In this document: positions 5,338 through 37,099 of the stretch, piece after piece | Numbering within the stretch: position 1 is the stretch's first letter | How the letters are laid out: every line of letters starts with the position of its first letter | Made by a program: the position numbers and the translations under genes | Notes under the pieces: model-generated | What the model saw: only the letters and a program-made list of their open reading frames with translations | What the model was told of the DNA's origin: nothing | Database searches by the model: none | Source: Octopus sinensis | Taxonomy: Eukaryota | Reading direction: 5' to 3' | Assembly: GCF_006345805.1 (NCBI RefSeq) | Contig: NW_021836874.1 | Span: forward strand, 1 to 37,512 | Length of the DNA: 37,512 bases

Positions 5338-5798
5338 AGTTAAGACTAGCCATCTGGAGTGATGGTGGGAAAGATATACCGTGTCATTCATCTGGGAGAT
5401 CTTGGAAGGACTCGTACCAGATTACGGCATTGAACGTCACTCAAACAGCAGAAAGAGGCGCCACTGCATAGTGCAAGATATCATCCCAACAGTGTCATCA
5501 AATTGCAGGACTTGATACTGGAAACAGCTTGGATTTCAAGGATTCACAGCGCTTCAGTTATCTCTCAAAACGCATGACAGATCTTCATAGTGTGGATGTA
5601 GGTATCTTCACGATATAACTGGATCTCCTCCTGTCAGTAGTTCCGGAAAAAACTTGCTTCGATGTATGAAATGGAAATGAGTGCAGCAACATCAAATTCC
5701 CTCAATCGTCAAATACCACATATCAGAGGAGGTTTCAATTAAAGTGTAGCACATCTAACGGCGGTGCCCCAGCATGGCCATAACACTCGAGCTGAAAG
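5338..5798 (+). mobile_element. Decayed 3' end of a CR1-like LINE with its 3' tail
   Basis: Translates ERYTVSFIWEILEGLVPDYGIERHSNSRKRRHCIV and later NSLD/GFK-like and LDLLLSVVP segments, matching the CR1-type C-terminus. Ends in ggcggtgccccagcatggcc...gctgaaa. Confidence 0.75.
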
Positions 5799-6122
5799 TA
5801 GAGCATAGCAGACCGGTCCTAGCAGTGGTGGACAAGATGCATTACGTATGCTATATAGTTGATGTTGCATGTCACTTTGACCCTCAAATAATCAAGAAGT
5901 TAGGCGAAAAGATAGATAAATACAACCCTCACAAGAACGAAATAACCCGGCTATGGAAAATGAAAAAAGTAAAGATAATACCAAATATTGTTGGGTCCTT
6001 GGGAACAGTATCAGAAGGCATCAAGGAGAATATAAAAGAAATTGAAATAGAGTGCCCAGTAGAGCTGTTACAAAAGGTTTGCCTCCTTGTCACGACCAGA
6101 ATAATCAGGAAAGTATCAAATT
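5799..6122 (+). mobile_element. R4/Dong RLE-domain fragment; inverted duplicate of 6770-7069
   Basis: HSRPVLAVVDK..CYIVDVAC.FD..EKIDKY..RLWKMKKVKIIPNIVGSLG..LLQKVCLL; near-identical to the reverse complement of 6770-7069. Confidence 0.9.
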
Positions 6123-6126
6123 GTAG

Positions 6127-6560
6127 TGACACTGGGGTACAATATACGAAACCTAGTATACCCATCATGATTACAGGTCTGATAAAGGTACACCAGGGAC
6201 CTGCATCACAACCAAATGTGCGCGACATGGTGATCACATATCAAGACAAACAGCACATGACCTTGCAAGTCGGGCCAAGTTAGAATTTTCTCCAGGTCTA
6301 GCAGCCCGTCCCGCTCAAATGTTCCTTGAATAACGGTTGGTTAAGGATGTTGAACAAAACACTCATGTTTCCAGAGGTGAATTATGCAAACTCCAAAAAG
6401 TTCCTCTCAACACATGGCTATGATCCTCCCCCACTACTTCTGCTCGTGATCAGAGATGCACATATCGTCAGCCATTGAGGGACATACTCAAATGGTTAAG
6501 GTCAAACAACTGACAAGTAAATCTGTACTATTGAGCAGAATATTTGTTATAGCCCATCTT
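6127..6560 (-). mobile_element. Non-coding TAA-associated interspersed repeat, copy 1 (truncated)
   Basis: Shares long blocks such as ccactacttctgctcgtgatcagagatgcacatatcgtcag with 33989-34543 and with the reverse complement of 10812-11305. Confidence 0.85.
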
Positions 6561-6576
6561 GCGTTGTTGCTGCTGC

Positions 6577-6607
<31 letters not shown>

Positions 6608-6608
6608 A

Positions 6609-6684
<76 letters not shown>

Positions 6685-6689
6685 TATTA

Positions 6690-8185
6690 TTTCTCTTTAT
6701 CACAAGTTTTGTTGGAACTCCTGGGCTTGCTACCTGCAGCCAACGGCACCATGCTATTCGTTCTGTTCAGCTATCTAATACTTTCCTGATTACTCTGGCT
6801 GAGTTCTACTGGGCACTCTATTTCTATTTCCTTTATATTCTCCTGGATGCCTTCTGATACTGTTCTCAAGGACCCAACAATATTTGGTAATATTTTTACT
6901 TTTTTCATTTTCCATAACCAGGCTATTTCCGACTTGAGAGGGTTGTATTTATCTATCTTTTCGCCTAACTTCTTGATTATTTGAGGGTCAAAGTGGCATG
7001 CAACATCAACTATATAGCATACACAATGCATCTTGTCCACCACTGCTAGGACCGGTCTGCTATGCTCTAGCGCCTGCTTGATTTGGATTGGGATATCTCA
7101 GAAGGTTTACCTAGTCACAGACACCACCATTCTCTTCGGCCTGTGCTTATACCTCTCTCCAGCCTCCACTTTCCGCAGTTTCTGATGTAGTACTTTCACT
7201 ACCTGATCGTGTCGCCACAAATTGTATTGGTTTTGGGTAAGTCTAAGTTTCATTAACACTATTGCAGATGCGGTGCAGCGGAGACATTTGCTCATTCCTC
7301 AGGTTGATCACTCTCAGTTCGTAGCAAAAGCTTGGTCTTGCACTGCCATTATAGTGCTCTCGGTCACTTTTTTTAGTCTTCCTTTCATCTGCCAATCCCA
7401 CCCAACTATTTCAGAAACTTCTGCAGTGGCTACATAGAATTGATTGTGTAGTTCCTTGTTGCGAAATTCTTCTTCCTGTCCTCATGGTATTTTGTTTTCC
7501 TATTTCCTCAGGTCTCAATACTCCTTCGTTCTTAACTGTCACTAGCAAGGTTTCCCTACTTTGGGCTAGGTATCTCATTAAACTCTCGAGTTCGATACGC
7601 ACACAGTCTTTCAAACGTATCAACCCTCTTCCATTTGTCTCTTCATGTATAGGCGATCAGTGTCTTGCAGTGGATGATGGGCTCCACGCATCGTTAGAAA
7701 CTTTCTTGACTTCCTGTCCATCTCATTTAGCGCCTCTTCTATCCACTTCAAAATTCCAGCACCATACCAAACTACAGCGATTGCGCGCGAGTTTATAGCC
7801 GAAATTTCGTTTTTGGCATTCAGTTTTGAAGCCAATACTTTACTCAATCTCTGCAGGTATACTATTTTTTTTCTTTTCTTTCATGTTAGATTTGATTCCA
7901 TCTGCCTCAAGTATTCCCTAATATTTATAGTTGAATTCACTTCATCATTGCACCACTTGTCAAACTTATGCCGTCTGTCTTGACAAGCTTTCCTTGTCTC
8001 TTCACCATCGTGATACATTTTGAGAGTCCAAGCTCCATCTTAATATCACTGGAGAAAATCTGCACTGACTGGAATAGGTTGTCCAGTTCTGCTTCAGTTT
8101 TTGTGAATAGCTTCAGGTCGTCCATGAATAGAAAGTGGTTCAGTTTTCCTTTACACCTTCCCAGATCATACCCCAACTTTATTTT
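6690..8185 (-). mobile_element. 5'-truncated, frameshifted R4/Dong LINE (RT C-terminus, RHD region, RLE, 3' UTR)
   Basis: NHFLFMDDLKLF, SAINSRAIAVVWYGAG, DRLYMKRQ, RHDQVVKVLH and RLE motifs in several frames; (TAA)n on both sides. Confidence 0.92.
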
Positions 8186-8215
8186 CTGTTATTATTATTA
8201 TTATTATTATTATTA

Positions 8216-8271
<56 letters not shown>

Positions 8272-8273
<2 letters not shown>

Positions 8274-8485
8274 TAGTTTTTATTTTTATAGTGTGCTTTC
8301 ACTTCACTACCGAGCGCAGCTCTGTGTGCCTTGGGTATGTGCTGTGATTTGTTGTGATGCTCTGATGGTTATTGTATGGAAAGTGTTCTGCGTAGGATGT
8401 GTGCAGTGCCTAGTAGTGCAATTTTCTGTATGTTATATGTGTTTGTAAGTCCTGGTGTTTTCTTATGTATTTGTCTGAATATTTT
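8272..8485 (-). mobile_element. Short 3' end of another R4/Dong family
   Basis: Minus strand reads KYSDKYIRKTPGLTNTYNIQKIALLGTAHILRRTLSIQ*, then a 3' UTR and (TAA)n. Confidence 0.88.
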
Positions 8486-21819: not shown

Positions 21820-22005
21820 GTTTTCTACTCTAGGAACAAGGCCCGAAATTTTGGAGGAGGAGCCAATCTATTAGATTGATCCCAGTGCATAACTGGTACT
21901 TAATTCGACCTCGGCGGAATTTGAACTCAGAAAATAAAGGCAGACGAAATACCTATTTCTTTACTACCCACAAGGGGCTAAACACAGAGAGGACAAACAA
22001 GGACA
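21820..22005 (-). mobile_element. SINE family B chimeric dimer fragment
   Basis: Has the same gaaatacc|tatttctttactacccacaagggg junction (21953/21954) as the tetramer. Confidence 0.8.
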
Positions 22006-22606: not shown

Positions 22607-22645
22607 CTATTTTCTAGCTTTTAACGGCTTGACATTTTACTTCTC

Positions 22646-23422
22646 ATTTCTTTACTGCCCACAAGGGGCTACGCACAGAGGGAACAAACAAGGACAGACA
22701 AACGAATAAAGTCAATTATATCGACCCCAGTGCGTAACTGGTACTTATTTAATCGACCCCGAAAGGATGAAAGGCAAAGTCGACCTCGGCGGAATTCGAA
22801 TTCAGAACTTAACGGTAGAGAAAATACCTATTTCTTTACTACCCACAAGGGGCTAAACACAAAGAGGACAAACAAGGATAGACAAAGGAATTAGTCGATT
22901 ACATCGACCCTAGTGCGTAACTGGTACTTAATTTATCGACCCCGAAAGGATGAAAGGCAAAATCGACCTCGGCAGAATATGAACTCAGAGCGTATGGCAG
23001 ACGAAATACCTATTTTTTTACTACCCACAAGGAGCTAAACACAGAGGAGACAAAGACAGAGAAACGGATTAAGTCGATTATATCGACCCTAGTGCGTAAC
23101 TGGTACTTATTTAATCGACCCCGAAAGGATGAAAGGCAAAGTCGACCTCGGCGGAATTTGAACTCAGAACGTAGCGGCAGACGAAATACCTATTTCTTTA
23201 TTACCCACAAGGGGCTAAACATAAAGGGGACAAACAAGGGCAGACATAGGTATTAAGTCGATTACATCGACCCCGGTGCGTAACTGGTACTTAATTTATC
23301 GACCCCGAAAAGATGAAAGGCAAAGTCGACCTCGGCGGAATTTGAACTCACAACGTAGAGACAGACGAAATACCGATAAGCATTTCGCCCGGCGTGCTAA
23401 CGTTTCTGCTAGCTCACCACCT
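22646..23422 (-). mobile_element. Tetrameric SINE family B insertion (one complete unit plus three headless ~180-184 bp units) with a 17-bp target site duplication
   Basis: Plus-strand units start at ~22646, 22830, 23012 and 23192. Flanks are cttgacattttacttct (22628-22644) and cttgacgttttacttct (23421-23437). Confidence 0.92.
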
Positions 23423-24351
23423 TGACGTTTTACTTCTGAGACTACCACGCACACACACACTAATACATTTTTATTTCTTCTCCGTAATATTTAGTTAATG
23501 CTAAGATCAACATGAAGAGACGCAGCAGCGAAACAATGGACATGTCACATATGAAGCAGTACTGGAAGAATGTGGCAAGAAATAACTAAATTCATAAAAA
23601 TATGTATAACTGTATATCTGTTCGATTAACATTCGTATTTATTGTTAATACGTTCCGGCAGATTCGAATGTGGATGTCCTAATCGCTGGTGTTCTTTACT
23701 ACAGAACAAGAACTTCTTTATGACGGATCTGTGTTCATAACACACTCTATTCTATAGTACAAGGGATTCTGGGGCAACTGATGTTTAGACATTGTTGTGA
23801 CCCATTAGCCAGAAGCTCCACCGTATCAATGACTGTAGTATGTTTATTGGCAACAATTACTACATCCTGTTAGAAAATTATTAACAAGACTACATGTCTT
23901 ATTTATAGGTCAATCGCTACGATGGTGATGCAGATTTTATTATACAGTACACAATCCAATGTTAGAAGCAAGAGATAAATGTGTCTTCTGACATCCAAGC
24001 ATGTACCATGTATCTGGTTGGAATTCTATCACTTTAATATGTTTCTTTTATAGCTCTCGAACTGATTCATATAAAGTTTAATACTAATATCAAATAAAAA
24101 TCCCTTCGCAGGACATTTTAAATATCTTCTTTATAAGAGCGTCATTAGTTTCTTGCTTGACACAGAAAAAGCATAATTTTATTTTACTAGGAACAAATAA
24201 CGCAGAAACGTAGTATTCTAAACATCTTTCATTATATTGTTAGGAACAAGAAGGAATATAGAAAGAAACACGTGGCTTATCAGAGTTGTAACTCTGTCTT
24301 CCGTTACTCACCTGCACTTTGCGGAGGAAGAAGAAACTACACCGAGAATAA

Positions 24352-24812
24352 TGGTGCCAAATTTTTAGCACAAACGAGCAATTTTAGTGGAAAGTGGTTA
24401 ATCGATTTCTTTGAAACCAGTGTATAACTGGTACTTATATTAACGACCACGAAACAATAAAAAGCCACATTGAACTCGGCACCATTTGAACTCAGAATGT
24501 AAAGAGCTAAGACAAATGTTGTTATACATTTTGTTCGACGCGCTAACAATTCTACCAGCGCGTCGCCTTTAATGAACAAGAATAACAATTTCAAATTTTG
24601 GCACAAGGCCAGCAATTTCGCGGGAGGAGATAAGTCGAATACATCGACCTTAGTGCTAAAATGATACTCTTTTTATCGATCCTGATAGGATGAAAGGCAA
24701 AGTCGACTTCAGCGGAATTGAACTCAGAGCGTAAAGGTGGATGAAATGCCGCAAAGCAATTTGTCCGACGCACTAGCAATTCTACCAGTTCGTCACCTTT
24801 AATGAACAAAAT
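24352..24812 (-). mobile_element. Two decayed tandem copies of SINE family B (~232 bp period)
   Basis: Both contain tgaactcaga..gtaaag and caattctaccag..cgtc.cctttaatgaacaa. Confidence 0.75.
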
Positions 24813-24871
24813 AATGCCTGACGTTTAAGTCGACGAGCTGCCTACATCGTTAGCATGCCGGACAAAATGCT

Positions 24872-26530: not shown

Positions 26531-26994
26531 GTTGAAATGCTTGACATATCGCCCTTAGAGTATTCCATTTTGGCTTGTCGATATACTTAGAGCGGTGAAG
26601 AAAATTCCACGGTGGTTTGTTCTGCCAGTTTGAGATCTGATTTCAAACCCCATTGAAGTCTTGATAATATAAAACTTCAAGCCAAAAACTGGGACGGTTA
26701 GTTCGAATTAACCCTTGTTGTAAACGGCTGGCCTTGTACCCAAGAAAATAATATTTAGAAGTTGAACTGCTTGACATATCGCTCTCAGAGTATTACATTT
26801 TGGATTGTCGATACACTTAGAGCGGTGACCAAAATGCCACGGTGGTTTGTTCTGCAAGTTTATGATTTGATTTCAAACCCCATTGAAGTCTTGATAAAAT
26901 AAAAGTTCAAGCCAAAATCTGGGACGTTTAGATCGAATTAATCTTTGTTGTAAAAGTCTGGCCTTGTACCTAAGAAATTAATATTTAGAGGTTG
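26531..26994. repeat. 230-bp tandem duplication
   Basis: gttgaaatgcttgacatatcgc at 26531 and gttgaactgcttgacatatcgc at 26761; collinear to aatatttaga. Confidence 0.95.
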
Positions 26995-34630: not shown

Positions 34631-36917
34631 GTTTGACTTTTGTTTATATTTGTACAAGTAGGCTCCAAGTCTCACCCAGAGACCTCAAGAGACAACAGGC
34701 TGGAAGTTCACGTTGTTGTTATGCCTAGTGTGCCATATATTTGGTTGTTTTTTCTGTTGTACTAGTGGATGTCTAAAAAAAAAATGTTTTTTTTAAACCT
34801 TGAGATTACATAGAAAGTATTTTGCGTAGGATATGAGCAGTTCCCATGAGCACTATCTTTTGAATTTCTGCCATTTTTGGGTTTCCTGGTATCTGAGTTA
34901 GGTAGCAATCAGCCTCTTTTGCTATTATTCCCAGGGCACCTATGACAACAGGTATTGTTTTAGTCTTCAGGTTGCATATTTTGCTGATTTCTATTTCAAG
35001 ATCTTTAATATTTGCTCAGTTTTTGGTAGGACTTGACAAATACGTTTATATCGATTGGGACAGTCATATCAATGAGGAGGCATGTTCTTTGTTTGAAGTC
35101 TTTCAATATGATGTTTGGCCTATTTGCATCTATCTTTCTGTCAGTTTGAATGGTGAAGTTCCAGAGGAGTGAGATGTGGTCATTTTCAAGCACTGGGGAT
35201 GGTTTATGTTCCCACCAGTTTTTTTCATGGGCAAATCCAGGTTTTTGCAGATTACCCAGTGAATATATTGTGCAGCTCTATCATGCCTGTTGAGATACTC
35301 TGTAGGCGCTAGAGGACTGCACTTGGAGACCACATGATCAATGGTTTCATTTTGTTGCTGACATACACGACATGTTGGGCTACAACCGATCTTTAATATG
35401 TTGGCCTGGTAGTTTCTTGTTGGTAGGCATTGATCTTGAGCTGCTATGATAACCCACTCTGTTTCAGATTTTAAGCCAGAGGCCATTAGCCATTGATGGG
35501 TCAGGGCTCTGTCAACATCTGCATTATTCGCTCTATTTGGGTATTTGCCATAGAGAGGTTTTTCTTGCCATTTATCATTCAGAATATCTAAGGCCGCAGA
35601 TTTAGCACGGGTTTTCATGCGCTTAGCTTTTTCTGTGCCTGTTTCTTATATGTCTATCTCTAATTCCGAAATCTGTTGTATTCGGAATTCACTTAGATAC
35701 TCCTTTGCCTGTTTTGTTACTGAGTATGATGCTTTCTTGTTTTCATGTTTTGAGACAAGTTTTAACATCCAGTCCTCAGAGTTTTTCAGGTAGGTGTCTA
35801 GGCCAATTGTAGCAATCTTCATTGTTATTTCCAGTTGTAAAAGTCCACGGCCTCCCTCTTTTCTTGGCAGATAAAGTCGTTCTGTATCTGCCTTAGGGTG
35901 GTGCATTCTATGCATTGTCAACAGTTTTCGTATTTTTCTGTCAAGATTACATATTTCAGTAATTGACCAGTTAACGATATTGAAACTGTAAGTCACGACT
36001 GGTATGGCTAATGCATTGATCGCTTCGATCCTGTTTCTCGCATCAGCTCTGTCTTGAGTATTGCTCTTACTCTGCGATAGCATTCTCTCCTGATCCTTTC
36101 CTTCATCTCTGAATACCTTATTCCGTCTCCTTCAATTACCCCTAGATACTTGTAGTTCTCCGCTGGGTCTAATTCTTTTATAACATTCTGCTGGTCAAGG
36201 TTAACGTTAGATGTGTCTGTCATTTTTCCTTTGATAAAGGTAGCTTTTGCACATTTATCGAGGCCAAATTGCATTCTGATGTCATCACTGAATTGTTTGA
36301 CAATCGCTAGTAAGCCATTGAGTTGTTGGTCATTTTTTGGAAAGAGCTTTAAATCATCCATGTAAATGAGATGATTTATATTTTTATCAAACATTTTATA
36401 TCCGTACTGTGCGTCATTGAGCAGTTTTGAGAGAAGTACTAAGGCTAAACAGAAGAGGAGTGGTGATAGTGAGTCACCCCGGAAAATGCCACATGAAATT
36501 TTTACATCACCAGCATTTAGAGATTCATTGTCACTGTTCAAAGTTAGTGTGGTTCTCCATGATCTCATACTTACAGACAAAAAGTTTCGCAGAGTAGGTG
36601 CTATTTTATACATTTCTAGGTATTTCTTAATCCAGCTATGTGGTAGGCTATCAAAAGCCTTTTTATAGTCTATCCAGGCTATTGGTAAGTTTTTGTGTCG
36701 TTTGTGACAATCTTCTAAGATCATCTTATTGATGAGTAGTTGATCTTTACAACCTTAGGATCCACGTTTACTTCCTTTCTGTTCATTAGGGAATATGCTG
36801 CTGTCCGTCAAAAAGCTATAGGTATATTCCGTCAGGACAGATGTTAGTGTTTTATACATAGTTGTTAAGCAGGTTATGGGTCTATAGTTTTTTGGTTCAT
36901 TTGTTTCTTCACTTTTT
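34630..36917 (-). mobile_element. 5'-truncated R4/Dong LINE: RT, CCHC/RHD, RLE and 3' UTR, with few disruptions
   Basis: NYRPITCL, WIDYKKAFDS, GIFRGDSLSPLLF, YMDDLKLF, CRVC..H...C..RHD, NRPNII..LLIDMTVP, QKIVLMGTAHILRKILSM*; (TAA)n tail. Confidence 0.96.
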
Positions 36918-37005
36918 TTCTTGCTCTGTCTATACTTGTTGCAAAGTGTCCAGTGGACAATCCTTGCTATTTTGTCATGACGTCTCTTATATTCTTTCTG
37001 GACTG
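36918..37005 (-). mobile_element. RHD-region fragment of a different R4/Dong copy, fused to the RT
   Basis: VQKEYKRRHDKIARIVHWTLCNKY lies upstream of the RT motif NYRPI, which is out of normal domain order. Confidence 0.85.
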
Positions 37006-37099
37006 AATAGCACACACATGCATTTAGAAAAACAATATTTGACGATCAATTAATAATAATAAATAATATGTGTGCATATATGGCTGCAGGACATCACCA

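Follow-up and report, generated by a model that had tools for sequence, protein, structure and literature searches.

A family-wide SINE multimer in the octopus genome and the probable microhomology at its joins

How does a short interspersed element come to stand four times in a row, complete once and headless three times, with every join at the same position? The question is raised by an array in a 37,512-nucleotide stretch of the Octopus sinensis genome (contig NW_021836874.1, positions 1 to 37,512; hereafter the window). A first-pass annotation had proposed that the SINE RNA is cut in a hairpin loop and then ligated or circularised before reverse transcription. The analysis described here points to a real, family-wide multimeric SINE that is less exotic than this proposal and whose units likely meet at a microhomology.

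Anatomy of the array and its family

The array lies on the minus strand, where positions 23420-22645 hold one 46-nt tRNA-like head (23375-23420) and four bodies of 180-184 nt each. TRF reports a period of 184 with 4.0 copies, which together with the unit coordinates bears out the annotated tetramer of one complete and three headless units. Unit 1 (23420-23191) combines the head with a 184-nt type A body and its tail, called tail X (23191-23374). It is followed by the headless units 2 (23011-23190, 180 nt, type B), 3 (22829-23010, 182 nt, type A) and 4 (22645-22828, 184 nt, type B). The joins lie at 23191/0, 23011/0 and 22829/8, confirming the annotated positions 23190/1, 23010/1 and 22828/9. 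A single 17-bp target-site duplication (TSD) encloses the whole, as annotated; its 5' copy (23421-23437) directly adjoins the intact head, its 3' copy (22628-22644) abuts unit 4, and the two are identical at 16 of 17 positions. The pairing of 23437-23421 with 22644-22628 is unique, with 2 of 74,990 window positions matching within one mismatch. The array looks like one retrotransposed block. Assembly artefact was considered and rejected, as the units differ from one another by 9-16% and the join recurs in the read sets X12, X8 and X20. Translation across two of the joins revealed no protein.

The strongest local structure of unit 1 sits at the position where the later units begin. A 13-bp hairpin (23362-23391), predicted at -15.3 kcal/mol with a TATC loop, is the most stable 30-nt window of the unit, so the annotated hairpin is real. 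Its 3' arm starts at nt 47 (23374), and the headless units begin at the first base of this arm. An A-box-like motif starts at nt 10 (23411) and a B-box-like motif spans nt 74-84 (23337-23347), both by comparison with the consensus; a stretch homologous to the latter is present in all headless units. The annotation had placed the join where an anticodon arm would lie, a placement that does not hold on the tRNA numbering we assume. If the T at nt 10 is taken as tRNA position 8 and the numbering is gapless, nt 34-40, within the hairpin's 5' arm, would correspond to the anticodon loop, and the join presumably lies near position 45, where the variable region starts. Tail X also holds a weak A-box-like string (23205-23217, minus strand, and its equivalents), which lies some 54 nt before the B-box-like motif of the following unit; it lacks the conserved A of the consensus but is a candidate internal promoter.

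At least nine other diverged copies or fragments of the 230-nt unit are found at E<1e-5 within 37.5 kb. Copies in the window with the same head and body carry other tails, older and younger, both of which we call Y. A 4-bp stem with a CTTGT-like loop lies near the end of all X and Y tails; in the array it occupies 23203-23215, with the loop CTTGT, and repeats at 23023-23035, 22841-22853 and 22657-22669. Across 12 aligned tails, 91.7% of 48 stem cells pair and 16 cells are changed on both sides, a level of pairing reached by none of 500 shuffles, with lower values in slid controls. The stem is therefore supported but unproven, since the aligned tails share ancestry and were themselves the source of the structure tested. 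By analogy with LINE-type 3' ends, the stem-loop is likely a recognition signal for a LINE reverse transcriptase, in which case every unit of the array would carry a complete 3' end.

Neither tail X nor tail Y matches the LINE fragments in the window. These broken non-LTR retrotransposon fragments lie at 35000-37045 (minus strand) and 5759-8276, near (TTA)n tracts; they match RVT_1 at E 4e-19 and zf-RVT below its cut-off, and we take them to resemble Dong/R4 elements.

The element is short and interspersed and exceeds the 100 copies in the SINEBase definition, with 81,591 matching contigs in run X12 and 192,713 in run X8; the 16 of 17 identical TSD positions add a further SINE hallmark. For tRNA-derived SINEs, the SINEBase definition also lists at least 60% identity to a tRNA over 60 nt, A and B boxes, a 3' end in common with a partner LINE, and transcription by RNA polymerase III (PMC3531059). 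ARAGORN found no tRNA genes in the window, and Rfam gave no tRNA match. Of 12 candidate proteins, 4 match an antisense frame of unit 1; three of the four are Octopus bimaculoides proteins, matched at 75-91% identity, which indicates an octopus SINE family. The predicted O. bimaculoides proteins P0121-P0123, among them an aminopeptidase-like and a kelch-like protein, contain antisense SINE translation, either by exonisation or by annotation error. A motif of 24 nt within the body is also present in a SINE-like element with a tRNA head, otherwise unrelated, on metagenome contig L007 (1400-1170, minus strand), which may point to a widely conserved SINE domain. The MetaSINE, CORE, V and Ceph superfamilies are marked by a conserved domain in the centre of the element. 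DNA pattern scans for further loci returned six short chance matches and then none among viral contigs, one match to an unrelated SINE-like element among metagenome contigs, and none, twice, among genome contigs.

Two other duplications lie in the window. At 24341-24815 (minus strand), two old full-length monomers stand in tandem, split by a repeat of about 19 nt of their upstream flank, an arrangement that corresponds to the other known type of multimer, TSD-(SINE-TSD)n. At 26531-26994, a 230-bp direct duplication comprises two copies with an 89% match.

Probable microhomology at the join and its recurrence

Behind its stem-loop, tail X runs for 12 nt and is followed by GGTATT. The same hexamer forms nt 47-52 (23369-23374), its sole copy in unit 1, and is found at each join, at 23185-23190 between units 1 and 2 and again at 23005-23010 and 22823-22828. 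In the Y tails of the seven monomers in the window, aligned behind the stem-loop, the columns of GGTATT hold TATT in four of seven and TAT in two of seven, and one tail stops early; the background of TATT is 0.012 per position. In two of four monomers with TATT (after 24631 and 24398), TTATT also occurs in the upstream flank, so the TATT there may be target rather than tail. Two terminal X copies continue past the nominal join: record 10 of X20 matches to 23186, 5 nt beyond it, before unrelated sequence begins, and record 11 of X8 (866 nt) matches to 23185, 6 nt beyond it, followed by about 700 nt of unrelated sequence. The overrun in these two copies could also reflect priming inside a multimeric RNA.

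Tail X thus likely ends in GGTATT, and the join is likely an overlap of two identical words, probably a microhomology rather than a blunt ligation. Cleavage and ligation are then not needed, and the absence of added bases is explained. The annotated fixed-base join stands insofar as its position recurs, but it can probably be placed only to within about 6 nt, GGTATT being likely common to the tail and the unit start. Loop cleavage followed by ligation or circularisation finds no support: a homology of 4-6 nt shared by the tail end and nt 47-52 explains the join, and neither an Rfam ribozyme nor extra fold stability was found in the units.

The join is also a 6-bp inverted repeat, a configuration seen in 55 of 20,000 random ends, with the tail end complementary to the unit start. 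As a mechanism this repeat was rejected, as predicted pairing is 0.11-0.33 in three of four junction windows and 0.73-0.77, in a shifted register, in one.

The same join occurs in a second copy in the window (21820-22005, minus strand). There, the last 52 nt of a tail X (22005-21954) meet a headless body at 21954/3, at a base identical to the array joins, and the body ends in a tail Y (21866-21820), making the copy an X|Y chimera. No head upstream of 22005-21820 and no TSD of this copy was found. Its body lacks about 30 nt (at 21905-21902, minus strand); the gap is flanked by two GGTCGA repeats, which build a hairpin where the body is intact, and this deletion may be another microhomology slip at a hairpin.

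The read sets show that the join is a property of the family. The interval 23141-23440 was compared with four of 24 listed runs (X12, X8, X20 and X22); the small-share rows X17-X19 are not among the four. X12 and X8 carry the quantitative evidence; X20 is an RNA library in which only 2 of 782,807 contigs match the SINE, and X22 was set aside because only 13 of its 12.9 million reads matched. Depth does not drop across the join, with the last tail bin at 0.89 (X12) and 0.95 (X8) of the third-last. At the start of the head, where copies enter unique flank, it drops to 0.20 (X12) and 0.19 (X8) of the plateau. In simulations, the last-bin ratio without run-through is 0.38 for a blunt end and 0.55-0.57 for tails that end at GGTATT, rising to 0.84-0.86 at 70% run-through and 0.89-0.91 at 85%. 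On this rough, simulation-based estimate, some 70% or more of X tails would run through the join. The simulated taper of the head is 0.35-0.39, softer than the observed 0.2. For chains of the form head-(unit)n at 70-85% run-through, the simulated tail-to-head depth is 3.6-7.3 against an observed 1.14-1.74, so many heads would have to belong to Y monomers or to head-body-X|body-Y dimers.

The join is also precise. Among the differences counted, no indel reaches 5%, and the largest alternative tail join among those listed, to nt 14, has a depth of 281 against 5.4-8.4 million at the main join; these figures come from part of the differences, joints and loose ends, a further 451 joints and 806 loose ends lying beyond those listed. 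A rare second join, 23407 to 23191/23193, links the tail end with the head near its nt 14; it occurs in 8+4 contigs of X12 and 6+5 of X8.

Alternating alleles and the origin of the chain

The units carry a second regularity. The annotation had reported two diagnostic sites that alternate A-B-A-B along the array; both are confirmed, and columns 23249 and 23224 show the same pattern. Six columns divide the units two against two: five separate units 1 and 3 from units 2 and 4, one (23274) separates 1 and 4 from 2 and 3, and none separates 1 and 2 from 3 and 4. The binomial p for the alternation, a post hoc test, is 0.018, or 0.045 when two neighbouring columns are counted as one change, and column 23274, by placing units 2 and 3 together, runs against it.

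Pairwise divergence between units is 9-16%, and each unit carries 7-13 private changes, with unit 4 the richest (13 versus 7-8). Units 1 and 3 differ by 9.3% and units 2 and 4 by 11.1%, compared with 9.6% for units 2 and 3 and 11.1% for units 1 and 2. Pairs of the same type are thus no closer than other pairs, which excludes a late local duplication. At four of the five alternating columns the B alleles make up 11-17% of family depth (X12 and X8); at 23224, the allele common to units 1 and 3 is carried by 2-3% of depth. B alleles occur across the family, which means that both types existed as family variants before this array formed; a single monomer as template therefore cannot have made it. 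Record 9 of X20 is of type A at the first site and of type B at the remaining two, which shows that the A and B haplotypes are not strictly linked. Independent draws of alleles yield ABAB or BABA in 2-4% of cases. The simplest reading of the alternation is that an A-B pair was duplicated in the source copy or right after insertion, and a multimeric master is the simpler reading, in line with the annotation, whose simpler alternative was a dimeric master copy plus unequal crossover.

An account to which we give an even chance combines these observations: the join would stem from a single or rare homology-guided switch of reverse transcriptase, and chains would now be retroposed from multimeric sources through read-through Pol III RNA. 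In the founding event, a LINE reverse transcriptase copying 3' to 5' would copy the head hairpin to the end of its 3' arm, whereupon the opposite RNA arm would re-pair with it and release the cDNA end. This end could then anneal to GGUAUU at a tail and be extended, so that the enzyme would in effect leave the internal GGTATT (nt 47-52) and resume at the identical word of a tail end, giving an exact join with no added bases. The resulting chain would keep one A box and become a source. The majority sequence of the four bodies contains eight TTT runs and no TTTT terminator (109 of 3000 dinucleotide shuffles also lack TTTT), and Pol III read-through and retroposition of the whole chain are therefore expected. 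Priming might take place behind any tail of the chain. The four-body copy was likely inserted in one step from the linear RNA of a multimeric source copy, and its ABAB order would stem from the duplicated A-B pair, in the source or just after insertion. The template jumping in the annotation is retained in this account as a homology-guided switch and dropped as an end-to-end jump onto cleaved RNA. For the R2 element, an invariant chimeric join has been taken as the mark of a single jump (Eickbush and Eickbush, PMC3414825). The end of unit 4, which stops short of GGTATT, counts against the switch, as does the fact that neither a multimeric RNA nor a source locus was seen in the data covered, and the inverted repeat at the join is a feature that a switch does not need.

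The same hairpin-assisted switch at GGTATT could instead have occurred anew in many insertions, each array being assembled from monomer RNAs where it inserts and the tetramer being produced by three switches between two RNAs. This is doubtful. It accounts for the single 5' head, the exact join, the single TSD and the location of the join at the strongest local hairpin, and the deletion of about 30 nt at 21905-21902 falls between GGTCGA repeats of another hairpin. The chimera at 21954 unites two subfamilies at an identical base and is equally compatible with rare switching and with repeated switching from one RNA to a different one. However, if no multimer served as a source, each pass would require switching at a rate of about 70% or more, and ABAB with a shared rare allele would demand a strict alternation between two RNAs, an outcome that random draws give in the 2-4% of cases noted above.

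An origin in DNA is improbable. Here slippage or unequal exchange at GGTATT would have given rise to the first tandem, using the same microhomology, and units would later have multiplied in place as in reptile SINE satellites. Alternating monomers and dimer-wise elongation are described for those satellites in the relevant part of the source (PMC10702118), and the section on clam arrays proposes unequal recombination (PMC11481361). Against it, the join is not specific to the locus, units 1 and 3 or 2 and 4 are no closer than 2 and 3 or 1 and 2, and at four of the five alternating positions the alleles are polymorphisms common in the family.

RNA circles are unlikely, and the full scheme behind them strains belief: the hairpin loop would be cut, the tail ligated to nt 47 by an RtcB-like activity, and monomer or dimer circles rolled by reverse transcriptase, as in non-LTR retrozymes. 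Units do begin at the first base of the 3' arm, and the 6-bp complementarity between tail end and unit start could hold the ends together. Ligation by RtcB before retrotransposition has precedent (PMC6789731). Record 9 of X20, a 211-nt contig from the RNA library with the same 30 positions at both ends and a period of 181, forms a closed loop without a head and carries two rare alleles. Closed de Bruijn loops also result from homogeneous tandems, and a short branch leading to a head can be trimmed during assembly; the record thus fits a circle and a homogeneous tandem equally, and it comes from a library in which two contigs matched the SINE. The expected signatures of circles were not found in the units: Rfam returned no ribozyme at E<=10 beyond two unrelated chance matches, neither strand holds an exact hammerhead core, and closing the units into circles gives them no more fold stability than shuffled sequences have (z -0.15 to +1.41 for all four units, 100 shuffles each). 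A further switch would be required for the head at the TSD, and a monomer circle is incompatible with ABAB.

Nested targeting, in which new copies insert into old ones at GGTATT, with the microhomology serving to prime them, and their 5' ends are resolved by pairing with the resident head, so that no second head or inner TSD is left, is scarcely credible: TTATT overlaps tail end and target in two monomers and unit 4 has the most private changes, but the copy at 21954 has no head upstream, three independent insertions are unlikely to give ABAB, and the outer TSD lacks TATT.

Comparison with known multimers and significance

The closest known case is in the blood clam Scapharca broughtonii, whose TSD-(SINE)n-TSD multimers hold 4-15 units according to the section that describes them (Martelossi et al. 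2024, PMC11481361). Those multimers likewise have a complete first tRNA head, later units cut at one head position and a single TSD. In the clam, first and inner units lack part of the tail, whereas every octopus unit has a full tail with the 3' stem-loop; clam tandems make up about 3% of copies, whereas most octopus X tails appear to run on. That section gives neither the sequence of the join nor a reverse-transcription mechanism.

Squamate SINE-derived satellites (sSat) are attributed to DNA recombination and reach up to 1000 units in subtelomeric regions, as the relevant part of the source states (Vassetzky et al. 2023, PMC10702118). They resemble the octopus array in their tandem partial SINE units, longer terminal unit and alternating monomers, one variant of which can dominate. 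The octopus units are likewise shorter than the SINE, with one extended terminal unit. In contrast to sSat, the octopus array is short, bounded by a TSD and apparently retroposed as a block; where an sSat calls for at least four middle monomers homogenised in place, the array has two middle units at 9-16% divergence. Nowhere in its main text does the sSat paper use the terms TSD, microhomology or reverse transcription (PMC10702118).

Dimeric and complex SINEs, as the corresponding part of SINEBase describes them (PMC3531059), are similar in that joined units are amplified from one promoter, but the octopus chains have a variable unit number, downstream units without an A box and two tail types after the join. 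Metazoan non-LTR retrozymes share tandem units of 150-300 nt; as far as the part of the source on their structure goes (PMC7761336), they need a hammerhead and a stable circle fold. The octopus units contain neither a self-cleaving hammerhead nor a stable self-paired circle and have a tRNA-like head instead.

Among octopus elements, the tRNA-derived SINEs OK, OR1 and OR2 were reportedly described by Ohshima and Okada in 1994. The literature covered, which leaves aside that paper, the SINEBase supplements, Repbase and Dfam, holds no account of this octopus multimer, and a prior description is possible. Similar SINE chains are known from clam and reptiles; what is new here is the recognition of the join as a probable microhomology.

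A bolder reading, offered tentatively, is that of one of the commonest octopus SINEs with a built-in slip site, formed by a strong hairpin whose 3' arm opens with the word found at the tail end. There the LINE enzyme would, time after time and always at the exact position, change from one SINE RNA to another and so assemble mixed chains during insertion; headless circles might be a side product. If this is true, each array would be a record of the RNAs that shared one retrotransposition complex.

SINEs are estimated at 11.6% of the Octopus vulgaris assembly, and most of those among recent insertions are unclassified (PMC13282606). If most X-tail copies are chains with one exact join, then consensus libraries, copy counts and age estimates based on monomers would be off. 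The family would also supply very many natural replicates for asking whether SINE multimers and satellites form during reverse transcription or later in DNA, and the combination of microhomology and hairpin makes the origin of its chains testable in an assembly and in vitro.
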